From Nitrosopumilus sp. (GTDB lineage Archaea; Thermoproteota; Nitrososphaeria; Nitrososphaerales; Nitrosopumilaceae): DNA of 64,000 nt. Below, piece by piece: positions 10,679-64,000 of the stretch (its first letter is position 1; every line of letters starts with the position of its first letter). The notes under the pieces were generated by a model, which was not told the DNA's origin, did not search any database, and worked only from the letters and a program-made list of their open reading frames with translations. Position numbers and translations under genes: made by a program. The DNA lies in NCBI GenBank assembly GCA_965206745.1, contig OZ242220.1, forward strand, positions 608,001 to 672,000. Direction: 5' to 3'.

Positions 10679-13600
10679 ATGAACGGGACATGGGGCATTA
10701 TATCTGTAATCTGCCTCGGCCTCTCTTTTGGTGTTATTCCCGCATTTGCACAAACCGATAACCCTATAATATTTCCCACTGCTTTTTCAGAATCTGACAG
10801 AACAGGTCACACACCTGACATATTCGTATTTCAATTTTCTCGAGCTGATCCGAGTAATGGTGCATGGCAAATCAGGAGCGATACTGATGGTTGTAGAATA
10901 CTTCCCCGCGATATTCACCCTCAGTCTGGAGTGTTCACCTGGCAAATACCTCTTCTATCTGAACCCACAACATGTGAGGTAACAGTAAGTCGCACTGGCA
11001 ATGATCCCACATCAAGACAATTTGAGTTGCATATCTATCGAACTATTGTACTGCCACGTGTAGATATAACTGAAGGCCAAGTACCTCCCAGTCTTTCAAC
11101 TATTATACCAAATTCTAATGAAGGTGTGCCAGACTCTGTATCGAAATATGAAATTACTCGACCTTCTGGTATTCACATACAAAGAAATGAGCAAGTAGAT
11201 TTATTTGCAGAAATGCTAGCGTCTCTAGATGAAGAAACCGGTGATTTTTCACGATCACTTGCATGTGATGCGATAAGAGATGGTCACGAATTTGCAGATT
11301 TTGACTTTCTTTTGAGATTTGAAGATAGTACTGATGTGACCTTTGGACTTGGTCTGATGAGAATAAGCAATGCTGAAAACTGTAATCAGAGGCCTACTTT
11401 CAGTCCGGAGTATGACGCAGATATATTCGTAGGTGATACAATTCCTTCCCTTGCTGACACAGTTAACAACCCTGATCATCCCTCCGACCCCATATCGAGA
11501 TATCGCATCACAGATAGAGGTTCTGAACCAAGTTTGCCTGATTACATTGTAGAGTCTCTGGATCCGAATACTGGTGAATTTTCAGCACCGTTTCTGTGTG
11601 CTTCAATTGGTAGCGATGTTCAAAGAGAGTTTAGTTTTGATTGGACATTTGCAGATGGCACCGGCGAATATGCTCAACCTGGCATGATAAGAGTGACTAA
11701 TGGTGATGCATGCACATTTGATCGAGCATATGCAGTAGAGCTGCTCGAAGGCCAAATACCTCCTCCTTTATCTGACTCTATTCCAAACTTTGAAGATCCA
11801 CAAGACCCTGCAACGGAATACAGCATCGATCAAGGGAATCTTTCGAACCCTTTGCCTGATTACATTGTAGAGTCTCTGAACCCAACAACCGGTGAATTTA
11901 CAGCACCGTTTGCATGTGACACACTTCCAAATTCAGACGGCGGATCTACTTCCCGAGTGCCCTTCGACTGGACCTTTGAAAATAGTGATGTAGATTCGGG
12001 GACTCAGCTAGGTTCTATGACCGTATTAGAAGATCTAAATTGTAATGACATACCTACTTTTACTCAGTATAGCTCGACAGTATCAGAAGGTGTCGTACCT
12101 CTTTCTCTTTCCAGTGCAGTTATAAATCCTGATCTGGTTCAGGGAGATCCTGTATCGGTATACAGAATCAAATCTGGAGACCTGCCTCAAAGTTTCATTG
12201 ATTCCCTGAATGCCAATAGTGAATTTGCAGATCATGGTACATTTGACTCATTCTCGTTTGATACTGTATCTACTCAACAAGGTTCCAGGGTCTTTGAGTT
12301 TGTTTGGACCTTTGAGGACGGCACCGGGGAATCAGGAAACCAGAACGGCATACTAACTGTAAATAACATGAACCGAGCACCGACAATAGATGATCCTATT
12401 TCAAATTTCCCTTCGTTTCTTCGTACAAATGAACTAGTATCCTTTCCCCTGATGGGCATTGATCCTGACGATGATACCCTAATCTGGGATATCTCCTCAC
12501 CTGACCTCGGAGCTAGCATTGACCAAGACGGAATATTCTCATGGACTCCACTAGAACAGCATGTCGGTATGAATGAATTCACATTTACCCTGACTGACTC
12601 TGTTTTAACTGCTGTTCCTCGATCTCATACATTTGATGTACGTATACCGCCTACCATTGTTGAATATCGAGAGACAGTATCGGAGAATGGCCCCATTCCT
12701 TCCCTATCAAGCGTAGTTACAAACCCTGATGCGAATCTTGCCGACGCTCCATCGATATATCGCATCAAATCTGGAAACCTGCCTGAATCTATCATGAATT
12801 CTCTTGAAAACAATGGTCGATTTGACACCACGTTCCCATTTAATACCACAAATAATGCACAAAGTTCCAGAGTCTTTGAGTTTGTTTGGACCTTTGAGGG
12901 CAATACTGGGGAATCAGGGAACCAGAACGGCAAAATTACTGTAACCAACTTCAACCGGCCACCTACCATACAACCTCCAAGTAATAACTTTCGAGTACAT
13001 GATGTTGATCAACACATAACATTTAACCTGACAGGCCATGATCCTGATACTGATACTGGCACAGGTGATCCTCCACCAATATGGGACGTATCAGATAATT
13101 CCATCATTGACACTGGTGCAATAATTCATCAGAACGGCACATTCTCGTGGATTTCAGATTCAAGGTTTGATGGTGAGGATCCATTTAGGTTTACATTCAC
13201 TCTGACTGATGTTGGCAACAAACAAGCAGAGACATTTGTTACCGTTCGTATAACTACTGATCCAATCATTGCACCTGACGGTTCCTCAACTGAGACAGAA
13301 GGTAACCTAGTAAGCACTCAATTTGGAGAAGACGGCCCAGGCCCCAGAACCTGTACCACTGATTCCATACTGCCTGAAAGTCTCACACTTACAGTTACTA
13401 ATCGTAGTACTAAATGTATCCTAACTGGGACTCTAAGCCTTGATGCCATAACTAACGGTTTGACATCGCAGGAATTTCCAATAGTATACATAACAAACAC
13501 CACTGGCATCTTTGCTTCAGGTACACATACCCTGACAGTCAAGGAACTGCCTTTATTTGATTCCTACGAAGAGACAGTAGCAGAAGGTGATACTCTTCCA

Positions 13601-57112: not shown

Positions 57113-57307
57113 CTACTCTTCCCTTTGTCCCCATTCATGATGGCAGTTGTTGCACATCCATTTTGGATCATGATCCGTTACTAGACATCCTCCTAAAATG
57201 ATCTCTCTTCTTTCTATCTGCTCTTCTATCTCTTTATCAAACCCTCTGTAGCCCCAAATAATTTCTGCAATCCATTCTTTGTTGCAGTTTGGACAATTCA
57301 TTGTCAT
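57113..57307 (-). CDS. Small Cys-rich putative Zn-binding protein
   Basis: CPNC...IIWG...LGGC...WMCNNC (track start 57355). Confidence 0.7.
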   Translation of the reverse strand: MTMNCPNCNKEWIAEIIWGYRGFDKEIEEQIERREIILGGCLVTDHDPKWMCNNCHHEWGQREE

Positions 57308-57468
57308 CTCTCCCTTAACCTGTTCATCTCGTTTCCGTCTTCTGTTGCCTTCCATTTGAAAGTCTCAAACGTTTTTCTGTGATATTCTAGACGAGTTTGT
57401 GCCCTTTGCACCTCTTCTCCTTGATCTTCTTTTGCAAGAGACAAGGGAAGGGGATGTGCTGATTTCAT
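57304..57468 (-). CDS. 54-aa hypothetical microprotein
   Basis: Hand translation MKSAHPLPLSLAKEDQGEEVQRAQ...NRLRER; ATGA overlap with the next gene. Confidence 0.45.
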   Translation of the reverse strand: MKSAHPLPLSLAKEDQGEEVQRAQTRLEYHRKTFETFKWKATEDGNEMNRLRER

Positions 57469-57588
57469 CTAGTTTTCTCCGTAGAACATTGGCTGCTCGT
57501 CTCGCTCATCTTCGAACTCTCGAATTATTCTAGGATAAAAAGAAGGCCTAGAATCTGATTCGTTTTTTTGAATGGTGTTTTGTTTCAT
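57469..57588 (-). CDS. 39-aa hypothetical microprotein
   Basis: Hand translation MKQNTIQKNESDSRPSFYPRIIREFEDERDEQPMFYGEN; TAG-ATG junction with the next ORF. Confidence 0.4.
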   Translation of the reverse strand: MKQNTIQKNESDSRPSFYPRIIREFEDERDEQPMFYGEN

Positions 57589-57620
57589 ATATTGACTCAG
57601 TTTCTTAGATTATTATGATC

Positions 57621-57653
57621 CATGTCAATAGTATGCATACTTTACATACTAAT
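57621..57653 (+). promoter_or_regulatory. 33-bp operator-like element, copy A
   Basis: catgtcaatagtatgcatactttacatactaat; 30/33 identical to the reverse complement of 58984-59016. Confidence 0.75.
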
Positions 57654-57698
57654 AATTATGATGATACAATAAAATATGAACGCATTCTAAATTATCAC

Positions 57699-58247
57699 GT
57701 GGCAAATTATTATCTGGATATTGAGACTGACGGCCTTGATGAGGTCCAAAACAGGATAATTTCTATCCAATACGCAGAACTTGAGCGTGGAACCGGCAGG
57801 CAGTTAGGCGAATTAACCATCCTCAAAGAATGGGAACTGGGGGAAAAAGAGATGCTTCGACGATTCATTGAAGAATCCTCGATCACTAACAGTTACTCAT
57901 TTGATTTCGTTCCGGTTGGATACAATTTAGAATTTGAGCACAAATTCCTACTTGAAAAATCTTCAAAGTATGATCTGGCTCCAATCTCCATTACGTCTAG
58001 ACCTTGCATTGATTTGAAAAGTATTGGAATCTTGATGAACAAGGGAGAATTTAAGGGTTCAGGACTTGACAAGCTAACTGGCAAGTCTCACAGCGGAATG
58101 CCAATCATTCATTGGTATGATGTAAAAAAATACGATGAGATTGAAAATTATATCCGACAGGAAACTGAGGAATTTATAAAATGGTATGTTTGGTTACATC
58201 AGGAACTACCTGAGTTGAGAACAAAATGGCAAACTGAGTCAAATTAG
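57699..58247 (+). CDS. DEDD/RNase H-like 3'-5' exonuclease-domain protein
   Basis: ExoI YLDIET, ExoII-like GYNLEFE, IDL, ExoIII-like YIRQE; GTG start (track start 57615). Confidence 0.75.
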   Translation: MANYYLDIETDGLDEVQNRIISIQYAELERGTGRQLGELTILKEWELGEKEMLRRFIEESSITNSYSFDFVPVGYNLEFEHKFLLEKSSKYDLAPISITSRPCIDLKSIGILMNKGEFKGSGLDKLTGKSHSGMPIIHWYDVKKYDEIENYIRQETEEFIKWYVWLHQELPELRTKWQTESN

Positions 58248-58985
58248 AAATTCTGCAGCGTTCTGCCCCTCCTCTGTGATTTTTATCCAGCGGTTTCTTC
58301 CAATCTTTTCAATCTCGATGAATTTCCAATCTTTTTCTAACGGCGCTATGATGTTTTTGTCAAGACTTGCAAATCTTGCCTGTGAGTGATTCCTCTCCTC
58401 TGAGTTTATTGTGATGATTCCCTGCTCCTCTGCAATTTTTGCCATTTCTTTTTTTGTTATCTTTTGATCCTTCTGCTCTGAGATGATTTTCAGTGCTGCA
58501 AGCAGTTTCGGCTTTGGAGTTTGAATCTCGTATGTTGGAAGTGCAATGGTGTCTCTGACCCCAAATGACTGCTGTTTTCCTTCAAACGCCGCATATTTTT
58601 CAGGCTGTGCATAAAATGGTTTTAGATTGTCACAGTTTTTTAAAACCATGCATGCCATCATGCATGCAATTGCTTGAATTTTAGAGCCTGATGCAACATT
58701 GACATAGATGTAGTTGTTTTTCTCATCCTCAATGATGTCCTTGATTGATTTTATCACTTTGAATATGCTCAGTCTGTCCGAATATGCGATCTTTATCTCC
58801 ACCCCTATCTTTTTGCATTCTTTTTTTATTTTCTCCATATACGGTGTGGATAGATCACTTGAGCGATTATCATGAACCAGTAACCACAATTTGTCAGCCT
58901 TTGTCTGCTTGAGAGGGATGGTGATCCTGTCTACTTCAAAGCCCAAGGGGGCAATGTGTACTCGAAATGTGGCCAAATTAGTCAT
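58239..58985 (-). CDS. CARF-like + winged-helix transcriptional regulator (DUF6293/HFX_2341-like)
   Basis: VHIAPLGFEVDRI, YVNVASGSKIQAIA, C-terminal IIAPLEKDWKFIEIEKIGRNRWIKITEEG. Confidence 0.78.
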   Translation of the reverse strand: MTNLATFRVHIAPLGFEVDRITIPLKQTKADKLWLLVHDNRSSDLSTPYMEKIKKECKKIGVEIKIAYSDRLSIFKVIKSIKDIIEDEKNNYIYVNVASGSKIQAIACMMACMVLKNCDNLKPFYAQPEKYAAFEGKQQSFGVRDTIALPTYEIQTPKPKLLAALKIISEQKDQKITKKEMAKIAEEQGIITINSEERNHSQARFASLDKNIIAPLEKDWKFIEIEKIGRNRWIKITEEGQNAAEFLI

Positions 58986-59016
58986 TAGTATCTATAGTAT
59001 GCATACTATTGTCATG
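58984..59016 (-). promoter_or_regulatory. 33-bp operator-like element, copy B, with 16-bp palindrome ATAGTATGCATACTAT
   Basis: Lies between the regulator's TATA-like box and its ATG, in the divergent regulator/PIN intergenic region. Confidence 0.75.
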
Positions 59017-59048
59017 TTATATAATAATTTTCAAGTCTAGGATATACT

Positions 59049-59468
59049 ATGACTCAAATCCAAAACATAGCCCTTGACTCCTGCGTCGTAATTGACATCA
59101 TGGAGAAACAAAAAGTTGCCTTGAGACTCAAAGCCTGTCTCCGAGGCAAATCCGTCAAAATCATTCTCTGTGATGTGGTATTAGATGAAGTAAGGAAGGT
59201 TCGCGGTTACTTGCCTGAAAAGGTGATCGCTAGAATCTCCATTCTTTTAGGACGAAAAATAGAACTCTTTGAAGCTAGCGACTCTGATGCTGCATCTGCT
59301 AAAGCAATAACTGCGCAATTTCAAATTTGTCACAACGGTGACAACAAAATCCTGAGTCTGTGTCAGGCAAAAGACTTTGTCCTAGTGACATTTGATAGGA
59401 TGCTTCTCAAGTCAAGTCAGTTCGTTGGCATTGCAGCATTTCATCCTTCAATGGCGGGAGGAATCTAA
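59049..59468 (+). CDS. PIN-domain protein
   Basis: ALDSCVVID, VLDEV, GDNKIL, LVTFDR acidic tetrad. Confidence 0.82.
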   Translation: MTQIQNIALDSCVVIDIMEKQKVALRLKACLRGKSVKIILCDVVLDEVRKVRGYLPEKVIARISILLGRKIELFEASDSDAASAKAITAQFQICHNGDNKILSLCQAKDFVLVTFDRMLLKSSQFVGIAAFHPSMAGGI

Positions 59469-59570
59469 ATGAACAACTGCACAAAATGTAAAAATCTGTC
59501 TGTAATTGCAGCAAATTGGTCATGCTGTAAAAATATCCTGGATTTGGGGTTTAGGGGGTTTTTATCATAA
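59469..59570 (+). CDS. 33-aa Cys-rich microprotein
   Basis: Hand translation MNNCTKCKNLSVIAANWSCCKNILDLGFRGFLS; abuts the PIN stop and overlaps the next ATG (TAATG). Confidence 0.5.
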   Translation: MNNCTKCKNLSVIAANWSCCKNILDLGFRGFLS

Positions 59571-59878
59571 TGAAAAATACAGAAAAATCATCTGATTCTC
59601 ACAAAAAGAGCATGTCAGAGGCTTTTGTCAATTCCTTTGGCAGCTATCCTATTGGATACGGCTTGGGAGTGGTGATTCTGCCCCTGTCTGTGGGATGGAT
59701 TCAGGAAGACCCATTCACTGCAAACATTGCAATCACTGCCGTCTATGCTACAGTCTCCTTTGGCAGGAGTTATTTTTATCGAAGAGTGTTTGAGAGGTTT
59801 GGAATTGATGATAATTTCATTCGATTAGGCATCAAAGGACTCTTGAAATTAAAACGCGCGTTGATTTGGAGACGGTAA
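59570..59878 (+). CDS. Small two-TM membrane protein (DUF7220-like)
   Basis: SMSEAFVN...GY and SFGRSYFYRRVF pattern. Confidence 0.6.
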   Translation: MKNTEKSSDSHKKSMSEAFVNSFGSYPIGYGLGVVILPLSVGWIQEDPFTANIAITAVYATVSFGRSYFYRRVFERFGIDDNFIRLGIKGLLKLKRALIWRR

Positions 59879-59941
59879 AGTTGGATAAAGCTCATAATTT
59901 TATAAATGTCCATTCTTTGAATTTGTTTAGTAGGTGCTTAA

Positions 59942-62900
59942 ATGTCTGATAATTTAACTGATGGACTTTACGCAAAATTAAATGATTACAAGGACAAGCT
60001 GCTCCGATTAGGCAAATCAAATCGCTGTATCTGCCTTAGCAGAATATACAACAAGCATAACTTTGATTTGTCACGATTATTGGAAAACCATTCAAAAAAT
60101 ATTGATGACTTGATTGAGCAATCATTTAAACGAAAAAAATCTGTTTGTATTTTACCTGATTCTGATTCTTCAGAGGAAGCCGATGTTATGAGAAGGCATC
60201 TGAAAGATTTAGCAAGGAATACCAAGCAGCTCGAAGATGAAACTGGTTCCCAATACTGTTATTTTGGATTCCCTTTTTTAGAAGGACATATTGATCAAGA
60301 ACATTACCTACGTGGTCCCCTGGTCTTGTTTCCGATTTCAATCTATTCTGGAAGAGAAAGAAACACCGGTGGCTGGTTTGTAAAATTTACTGATGCCTCC
60401 CCCATTTTTAATCACACACTCTTTGCAGCCCTTAAAAAAATAGGCGGGTATCAAATAGATGATGATCTTGAATCTGATTTTGAGGACATGCTGTCTTCAT
60501 TTGTGTCTGTAAACAATCAAGACACCCAAAATGATTTTATCCAAAATCTATCCAAATTTCTAGTTGCCAATGGACTCCCATTGAATTCCCAAAATGCAGG
60601 AACTCTAAATGACAAATCAAATTCCACATTGCCGTTGAAAAATATCACCAAGGATGAGATTGACGCACTAGAGGCGAGGCCTCTGGGAATTTCTAACTAT
60701 AAAATAATCGGCAGTTTTCCACAAGGAGAGAGTGCAATTTATCATGACTATGAAAATCTAATTTCAAAGATTCAAGATGGCGACAAAAATGATTTCATTG
60801 CAGATCTCTTGGGTGAGGCTGGTTCCCCTGTGGACTTTGCAGAGGATGTCGATGATGAAAATATTGAGAATCTTGACAAAGTTCGTGACATGGATTTGAA
60901 TTTGATTTTACCTAGTGATTCCTCACAGGATCGAGTGGTTTTATCTTCCCAAAACCAAAAAATCACCCTTGTAAGAGGACCTCCAGGCACAGGAAAATCC
61001 CAAGTTATAGTTAATGTAATCTCAAATGCACTCTCCAAGGGACAGACAGTTCTCGTTGTATGTCAAAAAAGAGCGGCATTGGAGGTTGTTCACCAGAGAC
61101 TTGGTGAGAAGGGCCTTGATAGATATGCCGTTTTGTTAAACAAAGAGAAAGAAGACCGTGCACACATGTACAGTCAATTAAAACAGATTCTGGAATCCCC
61201 AAATCCTATCGATGATGATAAAAAAGAGATTCTTGAAACCATATCAAACGAGATTGATGACTTGATAAAAAAACACTCTGAAATTTCTTTTGCCTTGTCT
61301 AAAAAGTATTTTGGCGGAATCACGATTCGTGATCTTTACACGAAGGCTCTTTCAGACTATTCTAAAAAACTGGATCTGGGTGGAATTGGAATTCAGTATC
61401 CTGAATTAGATAATTTCCTTTTTATTCTATCACAAGTTGAAGAAAATTACAAAGAATTTGAAAGAGATGATTATTCATGGAAAAATCGCAAAAATTTCCC
61501 TGAATTAAACTCATCTGATAAAAACAAGATCAAAGACATTCTCGAAGACATTTTATCAAAATCTAAAAACTGCATTATTCTTTCTGACAAACAGGACCAG
61601 AATACCTTGATCGATCTTGCCACTGCATTCTCTGAATCAAATTCAACAATTACTGAGTTGAATCAAAAAATTAATCTGCATACCGAATCTATACAAAAAC
61701 TCTCTGCTGCTCATAATGTCTCTGTTCCTCTTACAAATCTAGATGACTTGATCAAATGTGTTGATGCAGGATTGCTTCTTTGGAATAAATTCCAAAATTA
61801 TGATCAAATTATACAGGTTAAAGAAAATCATCTTGTTGAGGATTCTAAAGATCAACATGTGGATTTACTTGGAACCTTTTCAAATTCTCAAGTAAAGCAA
61901 TCTTTTTGGAAAAAACTTACCGATTCAGAAACAAAACGCAAGGCAAAACTGCAAAAAGATTTTCTGCAAAGACCTGAAAACATGGGTAAAAATCCTGATG
62001 ATCTCAAAAATATGCTGCAAAATGGGCTTGATCTGTGGAATTTGGTCACAAATCACGCTCAAAAACCACATATCTTTGAAAAATCATTTGTCCTCCCAAA
62101 CGACTCTGATCAGAGTCGTTTGCTGCACGCTCTCCAAAATCTAAATGCTGATTCCCTATCATTAAAAGAAAACTCTGATAAATTACAATCTACCCTTGAA
62201 TCATTAAGGGCAATATTTGAGAAAAATGATCTATCTTTTGACAAATCATCTCCGCTTCTTACTCCGGTTCAAAATGGGGGCGACATTATTGATCAAATTG
62301 ACTCATTTTCAAATTTTGTAAATAACGATGAAATTAAAATCATTCGTGAAAAATTATCAAATACTGACGAGTTATCATCTCATATTCAGAACTTGCTTGA
62401 TCATCTAAATGATTTTGACAGATTACAGTCACATGACATTAGAAAATCTGATTTGAATTCAATGCAACAAAATGTCTTGAATCAGTGTGTCGCAAAAATT
62501 GGACTGGAAGAAAATTGGAAGGAACTCGTCAAACAGGAAATATATCATTACTGGATTGAAGAAATAGAAAAAGATCGACCAATTCTAAAAGCTGGACATT
62601 TTGATGATTACAAGCAAAATCAAATCAGACTGTCTGAGTTGCTAGAAAAAAAATTCGATCTGCTTGTGAGAAAAATAATCAACTCTATTGAAGCAAGTGC
62701 TGACTTTCGTCCTGGAATGGGCAACAAAAGAACTCAAAGAGAGGCAGACTACAATGCCTTAAACCATGAATTAAGTAAAAAAAGAAAAGTCAAATCAGTC
62801 AGAAAACTCTTGGAAGAATATGAGCATATTTTATTTGATATTGCGCCATGTTGGCTTGCATCCCCTGAAATGATCTCAAATATCTTTCCATTAGAGCAAA

Positions 62901-64000
62901 ATCTGTTTGATCTAGTAATTGTTGATGAAGCAAGCCAACTTGCAGCAGAAAGGGCATTGCCATTTCTCTACAGAGGTGAGAGGATTGTTATTGCAGGTGA
63001 TGAAAAACAGCTAAAACCTCACGATTTATTCCAAATCAAGGAAGAAGACAGTGAAGATGAGGAAGACGACACAGTCAATATTGAAAGTCTGCTCCTTTTG
63101 GCAAAGAGACGCCACCATTCAACAACGCTGAGGTGGCACTATCGGTCACAATGGCAACAACTAATTGATTTTTCAAATCATGCGTTTTATAATGGCGTTC
63201 TGCAGGTTTCCCCTAACGTTGATCTAAAGACATCCGAGCCCCCGATTCAATGGATAGACTGTCCTGAGGGATTGTGGGAAAACAGATCAAATGTCGCAGA
63301 AGCTGCCAAAGTCGTTGATACTCTGTATGGTATTTTGCAAGATTTCCAAGGCCGTAAAATTCCAACCATCGGTATCATCACATTCAATGATCAGCAAAGA
63401 AATGTCATTATGGATGAAATCGAAAATAGACAGAAAAAGGATCCTGCTTTTGATGAATTATACAAGAAAATTGAAACCCCTGCTAGTGGAAAAAAAGACC
63501 ATGAGATTTTTGTAAGAAATATTGAAAATGTCCAAGGTGATGAACGAGACATCATAATTTTCTCAGTGGGTTATGCAAAAGATCCTGAAGGGAAATTCCG
63601 TCTACAGTTTGGTACTTTGAATCAGGATGGGGGTGAAAACAGACTAAATGTCGCAATAACCCGTGCCAGCCAAAAAATAATTGTTGTATGCTCAATTGAT
63701 CCTCGTGATATGAAGGTGGAGGGAACAAAGAATCTCGGACCAAAACGCCTGAAGGACTTTTTAGATTATGCAAATGCTGTCAGTAACAATGATGTTGAAA
63801 AAATAAAGCAAATCTTGGAATCTCTAAGCTCTGCAATGAACAAAACACAGCAACAAACAAAACAATTTGATAGTGAATTTGAAGAATTGGTCCATGATGA
63901 GCTTGAGAAGATAGGCTATGCTGTGGACACTCAGGTGGGACAATCTGGATATAGGATTGATTTGGCAGTGGTTCACCCAAAAGATCCATCAAAATACATT
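59942..64000 (+). CDS. DUF4011 + SF1 (Upf1/DNA2-like) helicase + Vsr/REase-like nuclease, Hhe-like; 3'-truncated and not in ORF track
   Basis: Motifs read in one frame from ATG 59942 to the window end: KLLRLGKSNR, GPLVLFPI, GPPGTGKS (60977), VDEASQ, GDEKQL, HYRS, ENVQGDERD, RLNVAITRA, FDSEFEE...TQVGQSGYRIDL. Confidence 0.88.
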   Translation, partial: MSDNLTDGLYAKLNDYKDKLLRLGKSNRCICLSRIYNKHNFDLSRLLENHSKNIDDLIEQSFKRKKSVCILPDSDSSEEADVMRRHLKDLARNTKQLEDETGSQYCYFGFPFLEGHIDQEHYLRGPLVLFPISIYSGRERNTGGWFVKFTDASPIFNHTLFAALKKIGGYQIDDDLESDFEDMLSSFVSVNNQDTQNDFIQNLSKFLVANGLPLNSQNAGTLNDKSNSTLPLKNITKDEIDALEARPLGISNYKIIGSFPQGESAIYHDYENLISKIQDGDKNDFIADLLGEAGSPVDFAEDVDDENIENLDKVRDMDLNLILPSDSSQDRVVLSSQNQKITLVRGPPGTGKSQVIVNVISNALSKGQTVLVVCQKRAALEVVHQRLGEKGLDRYAVLLNKEKEDRAHMYSQLKQILESPNPIDDDKKEILETISNEIDDLIKKHSEISFALSKKYFGGITIRDLYTKALSDYSKKLDLGGIGIQYPELDNFLFILSQVEENYKEFERDDYSWKNRKNFPELNSSDKNKIKDILEDILSKSKNCIILSDKQDQNTLIDLATAFSESNSTITELNQKINLHTESIQKLSAAHNVSVPLTNLDDLIKCVDAGLLLWNKFQNYDQIIQVKENHLVEDSKDQHVDLLGTFSNSQVKQSFWKKLTDSETKRKAKLQKDFLQRPENMGKNPDDLKNMLQNGLDLWNLVTNHAQKPHIFEKSFVLPNDSDQSRLLHALQNLNADSLSLKENSDKLQSTLESLRAIFEKNDLSFDKSSPLLTPVQNGGDIIDQIDSFSNFVNNDEIKIIREKLSNTDELSSHIQNLLDHLNDFDRLQSHDIRKSDLNSMQQNVLNQCVAKIGLEENWKELVKQEIYHYWIEEIEKDRPILKAGHFDDYKQNQIRLSELLEKKFDLLVRKIINSIEASADFRPGMGNKRTQREADYNALNHELSKKRKVKSVRKLLEEYEHILFDIAPCWLASPEMISNIFPLEQNLFDLVIVDEASQLAAERALPFLYRGERIVIAGDEKQLKPHDLFQIKEEDSEDEEDDTVNIESLLLLAKRRHHSTTLRWHYRSQWQQLIDFSNHAFYNGVLQVSPNVDLKTSEPPIQWIDCPEGLWENRSNVAEAAKVVDTLYGILQDFQGRKIPTIGIITFNDQQRNVIMDEIENRQKKDPAFDELYKKIETPASGKKDHEIFVRNIENVQGDERDIIIFSVGYAKDPEGKFRLQFGTLNQDGGENRLNVAITRASQKIIVVCSIDPRDMKVEGTKNLGPKRLKDFLDYANAVSNNDVEKIKQILESLSSAMNKTQQQTKQFDSEFEELVHDELEKIGYAVDTQVGQSGYRIDLAVVHPKDPSKYI

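Follow-up and report, generated by a model that had tools for sequence, protein, structure and literature searches.

What ties a CARF-domain regulator to the nuclease genes that surround it in a Nitrosopumilus genome? We addressed this question in a 64,000-nt stretch of DNA (positions 608001-672000 of contig C1 in genome G000, henceforth the window), taken from a genome of 1.86 Mb that is 99.6% complete. A reading made from the sequence alone (the sequence-only reading) had placed at the end of the window a CRISPR-independent antiviral module, in which a CARF-winged helix-turn-helix (wHTH) repressor that senses a nucleotide governs an exonuclease, a PIN-domain nuclease, a small membrane protein and a large helicase-nuclease. 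We identified the genes by combining the list of open reading frames (ORFs) with the Pfam, PADLOC and NCBIfam hidden Markov model (HMM) libraries, and every gene named in that reading is present where it had been placed. For comparison we used 201 Nitrosopumilaceae genomes from 27 genera (the family sample) and the regulator neighbourhoods of 40 loci of other genomes, about 20 kb each, or 41 with the locus studied here. We consider it about 60% probable that this stretch is one local version of a lineage-specific archaeal regulon, in which the CARF-wHTH regulator reads a three-box operator and controls a micropeptide together with nucleic-acid-processing cargo.

The three-box operator and its probable regulator

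A 50-nt inverted repeat in the window (57609-57658 against 58979-59028, 82% complementary) holds the perfect palindrome AGTATGCATACT. This 12-bp sequence occurs twice in the window where 0.09 copies are expected, and none of 100 shuffles reached two. The 14-mer ATAGTATGCATACT has exactly three copies in the whole 1.86-Mb genome, all of them inside 10 kb. The third copy (G000:C1:675686) lies past the end of the window, about 150 nt upstream of a gene for a UvrD/PD-(D/E)XK helicase-nuclease (henceforth UvrD-nuclease); this site had been passed over in the sequence-only reading, as had the micropeptide gene described below. Placed in the same orientation, the three copies have about 45 bp in common, comprising three ATA[G/C]TAT boxes about 10 bp apart and then a TATA-like box, and at each of them a start codon follows about 25 nt past the TATA-like box. 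We refer to them as operator-promoter sites 1 to 3 (Table 1). Site 1 has a leaderless 39-amino-acid ORF (pep39), followed by orf54 and a Zn-ribbon gene, on its minus side and the exonuclease on its plus side. At site 2 the leaderless PIN gene lies on the plus side; towards the regulator, the boxes occupy the interval from the TATA box to the start codon. Site 3 precedes a leaderless 28-amino-acid paralogue of pep39 (pep28) and then the UvrD-nuclease; no gene was found on its other side.

We scanned the genome with an operator matrix that was built only from the regulator promoters of 28 other genomes. Sites 2, 1 and 3 rank first (41.5, 38.3 and 31.6 bits), and the next separate locus scores 18.4 bits. 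This latter locus is a cluster of AGTAT/ATACT boxes about 188 kb before the window (G000:C1:419600-419680), between a pair of P-loop genes encoding 357 and 189 amino acids and the gene of a 380-amino-acid Zn-ribbon protein. It may be a degenerate fourth site or the operator of another factor.

Boxes and TATA box upstream of the regulator align in register in 31 of the 41 loci, and the regulator orthologues of loci with an in-register promoter are 42-86% identical. The pattern AGTAT-N4-AGTAT-N2-ATACTA, with at most one mismatch, was found in 83 of the 201 genomes, against 21 genomes for a control pattern with the wrong box spacing and about 30 for the reversed pattern. By a cross-tabulation made by eye, a site lies within 50 nt of the regulator start in 49 genomes. 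Five relatives hold the exact 12-mer core in one to three copies per genome, one of which is always at the regulator. Distant paralogues of the regulator (28-35% identity, genus g24) carry ATAGTATC boxes at their own promoters. Two kinds of match were rejected as sites: a 12-mer at G170:C1:112972, which lies within a gene for 565 amino acids and has neither flanking boxes nor a TATA box, and the one-mismatch matches that recur in genera g17 (ATTATTGCT…) and g20 (…ATCGGTACTA), which were treated as inherited chance sequences. For an inversion between the two inverted operator cassettes, no supporting joint was found in the contigs aligned to the locus; a single joint runs backwards, and it is explained by the third cassette, which the contig also carries. 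A sequencing run that may be of RNA matched parts of the locus at about 95% identity and was given no weight.

In genus g2 (loci L062, L067, L080 and L081) the third box is flipped, reading ATAGTAT for ATACTAT, and in the winged helix of the regulators concerned VRYTTLDK and GRNHHV replace ARFASLDK and GRNRWI. We set helix-operator covariation aside as evidence because a single clade fits it and G177 combines a flipped box with the standard helix, which leaves too few independent events.

The regulator pairs an N-terminal CARF domain with a winged helix, as the sequence-only reading had proposed, and its gene is convergent with that of the exonuclease, their 3' ends overlapping. Sequence profiles and structure agree on this identification. 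Pfam assigns HFX_2341_N (E 1e-35, 123 bits), the DUF6293_C winged helix (E 2e-25) and Csa3_N (E 1.8e-7, 31.7 against a cut-off of 27), and the PADLOC CARF3 model matches with E 7.3e-75. An AlphaFold model from the alignment of 41 orthologues has a beta-alpha core and a predicted local distance difference test score (pLDDT) of 90.2, and its best Foldseek match in PDB is Csa3 with cyclic tetra-adenylate (Csa3-cA4; 6wxq, E 3e-8). Nearly all of the matches listed are CARF proteins, namely Csa3, Can2, Csm6, Card1, Cam1 and ring nucleases, with a probability of 1.00; the identity to the Csa3 structures is 12-15%.

Among the 41 sequences, R8, H10, A12, P13, G15, E17, D19 and R20 in the CARF loop after strand 1 and N96, S99, G100, S101 and K102 in the loop after strand 4 are invariant or nearly so. 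They map to the model elements E8-13 and E92-96/H102, and a profile alignment, weak at E 0.02-0.1, equates the GSK loop of the regulator with the GGTK loop of Can2 and Card1. Because the conserved residues cluster in two pocket-forming CARF loops, we infer that a ligand pocket is under selection.

No match above cut-off was found in the genome for Cas1, for Cas10 (a single 20-bit match contains stop codons) or for a CBASS-type SMODS cyclase (best match 17.3 bits against 26.5). Since the genome is without Cas1 and Cas10, the regulator is independent of CRISPR, and this part of the sequence-only reading stands. A small ligand in the conserved CARF pocket probably switches the regulator; it would be a product of neither Cas10 nor a cGAS/DncV-like nucleotidyltransferase (CD-NTase), as the genome has neither enzyme.

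Regulator homologues occur in 96 of the 201 genomes of the family sample and in 19 of the 27 genera. In a class-wide survey they were present in 44 of 80 genomes of the own family, in two of three of one sister family and in none of 67 genomes from ten other families. Decayed copies exist in G162, G173 and G195 as well as in the own genome, where a second copy of the winged-helix part with four stop codons lies about 30 kb before the window (G000:C1:578383-578595). The loci of the CARF3 paralogues in genus g24 (L111 4185-12500 in G103; L112 3100-4500 in G187) have as neighbours a Dam-like methyltransferase gene and numerous genes for small proteins of Cys-rich or Zn-ribbon type, and resemble a mobile element or a defence island.

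The micropeptide and the variable cargo

The most conserved partner of the regulator is the micropeptide, whose family is 24-43 amino acids long and has the consensus [FY]PRIIREF[DE]D..DE.P[ML].Y; a short form, VYPKVKSVFEE, is found in genera g6, g11 and g26. Variation at third codon positions is visible among the aligned loci. With a family profile, the micropeptide was detected in 30 of the 41 regulator loci and in 57 of the 201 genomes. The regulator is present in 55 of these 57, and the other two are marginal matches. For most copies the distance to the regulator is no more than about 1.5 kb, and in four loci of g6 and g11 (L047, L049, L055 and L056) the micropeptide is the sole gene of the divergent unit, the next genes being convergent. 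The pair does not resemble RRNPP-type peptide signalling, in which a secreted pro-peptide with a signal sequence meets a receptor made of tetratricopeptide repeats: the peptides are hydrophilic and have no hydrophobic N-terminus, and the regulator consists of CARF and wHTH domains, not of tetratricopeptide repeats. A complex prediction for two copies of the regulator with pep39 scored 0.00 and was not counted either way.

In a library of 1.84 billion proteins the micropeptide profile matched 102 representatives, nearly all of 24-77 amino acids, and the few long matches are charged repeat proteins in which the motif is embedded. A near-copy of the motif (…KKKPTTMFPRIIREFPDEKDEDPMIY…) was seen in one such protein, of 402 amino acids and with WESWLEK-type repeats, on a 64.5-kb IMG/VR contig (L171 10001-11209). 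The contig is that of an archaeal tailed virus; it has an MCM helicase, and the motif-bearing protein is encoded directly after the large terminase gene. The viral protein may mimic the host micropeptide.

Behind pep39, orf54 has one homologue (33% identity), at the same position in G170 (L042), and no match in Pfam or PHROG. The Zn-ribbon protein probably starts at the 17th codon of its ORF (about 57307, giving 64 amino acids). Its Zn-ribbon matches in Pfam are weak and all under the cut-off; homologues adjoin the regulator in 4 of the 40 other loci by tblastn and cluster in 5 of the 41 by protein clustering.

The exonuclease is of the DEDD type (Pfam RNase_H_2 with 24.1 bits, where the cut-off is 22; PADLOC DEDDh with E 4.6e-5) and has no match in PHROG. 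Judged from its homologues, it most likely starts at GTG 57699 (182 amino acids) and not at ATG 57615, because this is where eight of them begin, with M-(A/G)-N-Y-Y-L-D-I-E-T, and because the model of the long ORF has a pLDDT below 50 over residues 1-30. With this start, site 1 would sit in the exonuclease promoter. The motifs YLDIETxG and GYNLxFE are invariant, and D35 and E37, the DxE of motif Exo I, are so in nine sequences. The structural model is of moderate quality (pLDDT 63); its fold matches are all DEDD exonucleases, two of them with E ≤ 0.001, and the best are DinG-exo, ExoI, Pol III epsilon, RNase T and Orn/NrnC. Homologues are present in 14 of the 201 genomes, as a rule at a large distance from the regulator. 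G103 has a DUF7220-exonuclease pair that converges on a CARF3 paralogue. In G187 four genes, the last two being DUF7220-exonuclease, form an operon with an operator-like site at its head, and boxes precede the UvrD orthologue too. These two loci indicate that the membership of the exonuclease is not a one-off.

On the other side of the regulator, all four acidic residues expected of a PIN nuclease (D10, E47, D98 and D116) are present in the translation of the PIN gene. A PIN-like gene is divergent from the regulator in 21 of the 41 loci by clustering, the own locus included, and in 11 of the 40 other loci by tblastn. A VapB-type antitoxin gene does not precede it: behind the TATA box the operon opens with PIN itself, which is leaderless, and small ORFs follow instead. 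The next ORF, Cys33, has no match in Pfam, PADLOC or NCBIfam and no homologue at E ≤ 1e-4 in the 40 related loci; it may be a genuine gene or a spurious frame, and in relatives its slot holds the micropeptide. DUF7220 occurs in 10 of the 41 regulator loci by clustering (own locus included) and in 9 of the 40 others by tblastn, and some ESM Atlas clusters with the DUF7220 label have viral members.

The large helicase-nuclease has the Hhe-like architecture, with DUF4011, a superfamily 1 (SF1) helicase and a Vsr-like nuclease in one polypeptide (DUF4011, E 1.5e-9; AAA_11/AAA_12; a complete MTES_1575, E 1.3e-34; DUF559, E 4.7e-4). In PADLOC it matches PDC-S37 (E 4.5e-170) and Hhe (E 1e-78). Its NCBIfam scores stay under the cut-offs for full-length equivalogs of ProA (NF058533, 687.9 bits against 1500, E 3.4e-206) and Hhe (NF042953, 485.6 bits against 2000, E 3.3e-145), and the matches span only the helicase and nuclease part of these models. 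Homologues are found in 15 of the 201 genomes. Five genomes have helicase and regulator on one contig, at least 75 kb apart. The block that runs from the start of DUF7220 (from window position 59594) through the helicase, with TM209, is 80% identical in DNA to one in G195, of the same genus (L104 7761-13022), where the surrounding genes are unrelated, DUF7220 is broken and there is no operator. TM209 follows the helicase in G195 and in G001, not in G061; it has no match in Pfam, NCBIfam or PHROG, and its best ESM Atlas score (0.80) is uninformative. Judged by these comparisons, the helicase belongs to a separately mobile DUF7220-helicase-TM209 cassette that adjoins the regulator only in this genome. 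That it travels as a block of its own runs counter to its inclusion in the module by the sequence-only reading. As the cassette landed behind PIN, any control of the helicase by the regulator would be special to this genome and is suggested by position. Read-through into the helicase is plausible, because DUF7220 is translationally coupled to PIN-Cys33 and runs of T in the 63-nt gap before the helicase do not exceed four.

The best-conserved large cargo is the UvrD-nuclease, which is AddA/RecB-like. Its orthologues occur in 10 of the 201 genomes, 9 of which hold the regulator; in 6 the gene either follows an operator or is no more than 3 kb away from the regulator. Beside the regulator in the 40 other loci, tblastn detected two full-length copies plus three that are distant or fragmentary. 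The operons of other genomes hold PD-(D/E)XK, UvrD-Cas4-like, ArdC-N-like and DnaJ-domain proteins. An operator and a small upstream ORF also precede nurA, in the order nurA-herA-mre11-rad50, in six genomes of four genera, 120-150 nt upstream, and the regulator lies beside rad50-mre11-herA-nurA in 6 of the 40 other loci.

The small ORF (about 25-30 amino acids, …LITNSQIITLGKYHTTQ…) overlaps the nurA start codon in G170 (L042 2584-2735), in G112 (L109 4880-5025) and in the own genome (L002 18248-18330). The three-box operator precedes it in G170 and G112; the own genome keeps the tail of the ORF and has lost the operator.

The genes 5' of position 57113 are housekeeping genes according to the ORF list (L15e, thioredoxin-like, HEAT-repeat and cupredoxin proteins), and the window contains neither tRNA genes nor a compositional break. 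Past position 64000 the cluster goes on with TM209, the UvrD-nuclease with its own peptide copy and operator, and rad50-mre11-herA-nurA. The regulator locus keeps the same housekeeping flanks in several genera, with hotspot-like variable cargo between them. A prophage-type switch of repressor and early operon was considered; these constant flanks speak against a recent mobile element.

Table 1 Coordinates of the described features. Positions are those of the window unless a locus, genome or contig is given; adding 55999 to an L002 position gives the window scale for features past the window end.
Feature	Position	Strand	Basis or remark
Zn-ribbon protein (CxxC...CxxC), 80-amino-acid ORF, last gene of the pep39-orf54-Zn-ribbon operon	57113-57355	-	ORF list
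orf54, 54 amino acids, abuts pep39 and overlaps the Zn-ribbon ORF	57304-57468	-	ORF list; weakest gene call of the set
pep39 micropeptide (…FYPRIIREFEDERDEQPMFYGEN), leaderless first gene after site 1	57469-57588	-	family profile
Operator-promoter site 1	57609-57658	.	core palindrome 57630-57641, third box 57646-57650
Site 1 TATA-like box ATCATAATAAT	57609-57619	-	between pep39 operon (-) and exonuclease (+)
DEDD-type 3'-5' exonuclease (RNase_H_2 / PolB-exo-like)	57615-58247	+	Pfam, PADLOC
Csa3-like CARF (CARF3 / HFX_2341_N) + DUF6293_C winged-helix regulator, 248 amino acids	58239-58985	-	Pfam, PADLOC, NCBIfam
Operator-promoter site 2	58979-59031	.	boxes 58987-58991, 58996-59000, 59003-59007; core palindrome 58996-59007
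Site 2 palindromic TATA box TTATATAATAAT	59017-59028	.	common to regulator (-) and PIN operon (+)
PIN-domain nuclease, 139 amino acids, leaderless first gene of the divergent operon	59049-59468	+	Pfam PF01850, 30.6 bits against 23.6
Cys33, 33-amino-acid Cys-rich ORF	59469-59570	+	ORF list; TAAATG and TAATG junctions
DUF7220 two-helix membrane protein, 102 amino acids, also first gene of the DUF7220-helicase-TM209 block	59570-59878	+	Pfam E 2.4e-15; phrog_4276 E 4.9e-10
DUF4011 + SF1 helicase + MTES_1575/DUF559 (Vsr-like) nuclease, 1425 amino acids	59942-64000 and 219 bases past the window end (G000:C1:667942-672219)	+	Pfam, PADLOC, NCBIfam
TM209, 209-amino-acid membrane protein	L002 8217-8846	+	beyond window
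UvrD/PD-(D/E)XK helicase-nuclease, 888 amino acids	L002 8871-11537	-	beyond window
pep28, second micropeptide copy	L002 11561-11647	-	beyond window, after site 3
Operator-promoter site 3	L002 boxes 11683-11712 = C1:675682-675711; TATA-like box L002 11665-11679	.	exact 14-mer
rad50-mre11-herA-nurA	L002 11888-18248	-	beyond window
Operator-like sites 120-130 nt upstream of nurA in genomes with no regulator detected	G017:C56:4228, G085:C24:605, G086:C24:5170		pattern search

The proposed regulon and its competitors

In the regulon that we favour, the Csa3-like CARF-wHTH regulator would itself be the protein that reads the boxes, binding the three ATA[G/C]TAT boxes, with AGTATGCATACT as their core, that abut the TATA box. 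It is predicted to repress its own gene, since the boxes separate the start codon of that gene from the TATA box, and a leaderless operon would start on the other side of the palindromic TATA box. Across the family, this divergent operon would begin with PIN and/or a micropeptide of 24-43 amino acids and continue with variable nucleic-acid-processing cargo. At the present locus, three cassettes within 10 kb may tie together five units: pep39-orf54-Zn-ribbon; the DEDD exonuclease; the regulator; PIN-Cys33-DUF7220, whose transcription probably continues into the helicase-nuclease and TM209; and pep28-UvrD/PD-(D/E)XK. The proposal of the sequence-only reading that the regulator is a repressor thus suits the geometry of its own gene. 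It does not extend to the divergent operons, where the site lies upstream of the TATA box and activation is as possible as repression. The sequence itself gives direct evidence of the co-regulation that had been proposed: regulator, exonuclease promoter and PIN operon have the family-conserved operator in common. The helicase is linked to them by its position. As to recurrence of the neighbourhood, PIN and DUF7220 do lie beside the regulator elsewhere, and exonuclease-DUF7220 lies by a CARF3 paralogue in another genus; the helicase does not recur.

Several observations weigh against this regulon. Three genomes (G017, G085 and G086) have a site upstream of nurA and no regulator by protein or profile search, and the nurA promoter of the own genome has no operator site. 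The sites without a regulator are either relics of a lost regulator or boxes read by another factor; relics are plausible because the regulator is often lost and leaves decayed copies. Among the genes at the locus, the exonuclease adjoins an orthologous regulator in none of the 40 other loci, and the helicase adjoins it in none of them either, nor in any of the 14 other helicase-positive genomes. The helicase also has a TATA-like box of its own in the 63-nt gap, and it is without any operator in G195, G001 and G061. The regulator scores below the curated NCBIfam cut-offs for Csa3 (TIGR01884, 28.8 bits against 60.2) and HFX_2341 (NF051475, 18.2 bits against 500, N-terminal half only); with both missed, it represents a distinct CARF3 lineage outside these two families. 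Finally, the sampled genomes are relatives, so that our tallies exaggerate independence, and the association of operator and regulator over the 201 genomes was cross-tabulated by eye.

The sites at nurA bear on two other explanations. One is a regulon for DNA damage or double-strand breaks with no antiviral purpose, in which a damage-derived (oligo)nucleotide is sensed and end-processing enzymes (UvrD/PD-(D/E)XK, exonuclease and PIN) are induced, joined in some genomes by nurA-herA-mre11-rad50. We give this a real if clearly minority chance. It would account for the operators upstream of nurA in four genera, for the regulator beside the rad50 operon, for the UvrD-nuclease as most conserved large cargo with its own operator, and for further cargo of the PD-(D/E)XK and ArdC-N-like kinds; archaea are not known to have LexA. 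A core repair regulator would, however, be expected to be more constant than one that is absent from 105 of the 201 family genomes. Other points against it are the hotspot-like variability of the cargo, the fact that most PIN domains are RNases, the lack of a site at nurA in the own genome and the three genomes that have such a site and no detected regulator. These same three sites are what one would expect if the boxes were read by another transcription factor, or if a promoter module had spread by duplication and the CARF protein were merely regulated; that the duplicated unit of about 45 bp comprises the TATA box as well would also fit promoter copying. We think this unlikely, as a site within 50 nt of the regulator start is the classic layout of autoregulation, distant paralogues (28-42% identity) keep the same type of box at their own promoters, and the pseudogene remnants of a regulator that is often lost make relic sites plausible. 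The clade with the flipped third box points the same way, with changes in the recognition helix and wing, G177 being a counter-example.

The sequence-only reading had taken all genes as one dedicated antiviral system, in which a nucleotide-sensing repressor frees the nucleases upon infection, the inducer being produced or removed by the exonuclease. The operator common to the exonuclease and PIN promoters is consistent with this, as are the helicase's matches to the anti-phage models PDC-S37, ProA and Hhe, the patchy, accessory distribution of all genes, the viral relatives of DUF7220, the peptide motif embedded in a tailed-virus protein, and the nano-RNases Orn and NrnC among the fold matches of the exonuclease. 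We nevertheless regard such a system as decidedly unlikely. The gene set does not recur as a unit, the helicase stays under the curated Hhe and ProA cut-offs, keeps its distance from the regulator on shared contigs and occurs as a block alone in G195, and in g6 and g11 the micropeptide is the regulator's sole cargo. An exclusively antiviral role also sits poorly with repair genes behind the same operator, namely nurA-herA-mre11-rad50 in six relatives and the UvrD-nuclease as top large cargo. Very improbable, in our judgement, is a core resembling a toxin-antitoxin pair, with PIN as the toxin, the acidic micropeptide as its antidote, the regulator in control and the other genes as bystanders. 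The peptide does come directly after PIN in seven loci (L046, L057, L059, L061, L062, L068 and L070), the four acidic residues of PIN are in place, and there is a weak match to the PIN toxin family in NCBIfam (E 0.0013). Many loci, however, have the peptide and no PIN, including those of g6 and g11; neither peptide copy of the own genome adjoins PIN, and no VapB-like gene lies upstream. An apparent PIN-peptide fusion in G052, a 302-amino-acid open frame, proved to be an artefact of GC-rich sequence in which PIN and peptide are in different frames.

For the regulon with a CARF-wHTH regulator at its centre, we lean towards a role in the response to broken or foreign DNA, working in the manner of the bacterial WYL-domain regulators, with an antiviral role and a DNA-end or DNA-damage role as candidates of equal standing. 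The PIN nuclease, the hotspot-like cargo, the viral members among the DUF7220 relatives, the peptide motif in a viral protein and the helicase's matches to defence models are on the side of defence; the rad50 neighbourhood, the operators before nurA and the AddA/RecB-like cargo are on the side of repair.

Known relatives and meaning of the proposed regulon

CARF-wHTH regulators and the CARF3 clade are known already. We compared the regulator with Csa3/Csa3a of the Sulfolobales (Sso1445; PDB 2WTE, 6W11 and 6WXQ), which has the same order of CARF and winged helix, gives the best structural match and shares Csa3_N above cut-off; like it, the regulator is predicted from sequence to act as a transcription factor at promoters of nucleic-acid-targeting genes. 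It differs in its C-terminal DUF6293_C, in its low identity and curated Csa3 score, and in residing in a genome without cas genes or Cas10, and its predicted regulon consists of the micropeptide and nucleases, not of cas genes. With HFX_2341 of Haloferax mediterranei, its one relative studied by experiment, it has the N-terminal Pfam family HFX_2341_N in common and is not its equivalog. HFX_2341 is described, in the available text, as a chromosomal Csa3a-like regulator of 308 amino acids that is also present in CRISPR-less species, represses genes according to deletion and over-expression, and acts globally on transport, metabolism and cas genes; the same text mentions no operator, micropeptide or nuclease regulon (PMC11434293).

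With Hhe, ProA and PDC-S37 the helicase has DUF4011, an SF1 helicase and a Vsr-like/MTES_1575 nuclease in common, and its partial matches to them are strong. It differs from Hhe and ProA in scoring under both equivalog cut-offs, in having 1425 amino acids against models of about 1800-1900 positions, in being archaeal and in its company of DUF7220 and TM209; its activity is predicted. No paper describing PDC-S37 or the ProA anti-phage helicase was found in the literature. Bacterial WYL-domain regulators (BrxR, CapW, PafBC and DriD) have both defence and DNA-damage roles. By analogy, they resemble the present regulator in joining a ligand-sensing domain to an HTH or wHTH domain, in autoregulation, which is predicted for the present protein, and in standing beside or divergent from nuclease and defence genes. 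The present regulator is not a member of that family: its sensor is CARF and not WYL, and its operons are leaderless with an archaeal TATA box and B recognition element.

We found no published description of the regulator, operator or micropeptide in ammonia oxidisers in a literature search that did not cover supplementary tables. The triplicated operator wiring, the verdicts on exonuclease and helicase, the nurA sites without regulator and the viral motif copy are new.

A more far-reaching scenario, which is unlikely to hold as a whole, would make the CARF sensor the master switch of an independent regulon for immunity or for the response to DNA ends in CRISPR-less ammonia oxidisers. Its universal output would be the micropeptide, acting on a host machine such as that for DNA-end processing or replication, and tailed viruses would have copied the motif into a large protein of the virion module to mimic or titrate it. 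The ligand would come from neither Cas10 nor a CD-NTase and could be an oligonucleotide released by a nuclease and produced or removed by the operator-controlled DEDD exonuclease.

Gene regulation is poorly known in ammonia-oxidising archaea, which rank among the most abundant marine microbes. The locus offers a testable regulon, with a regulator, a 30-bp operator, five predicted units and a micropeptide. The micropeptide is missing from ordinary annotation. Its pairing with the regulator holds in several genera, and its motif is also found in a viral protein. The usual view is that CARF sensors receive the cyclic oligoadenylates made by type III CRISPR systems. A conserved CARF pocket in a lineage without Cas10 suggests another signal, and CARF sensing could work without CRISPR. 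The connection with UvrD/PD-(D/E)XK, and with nurA-herA-mre11-rad50 in some genomes, suggests an archaeal counterpart of the WYL-type regulators, which may fill the place of the missing SOS response.

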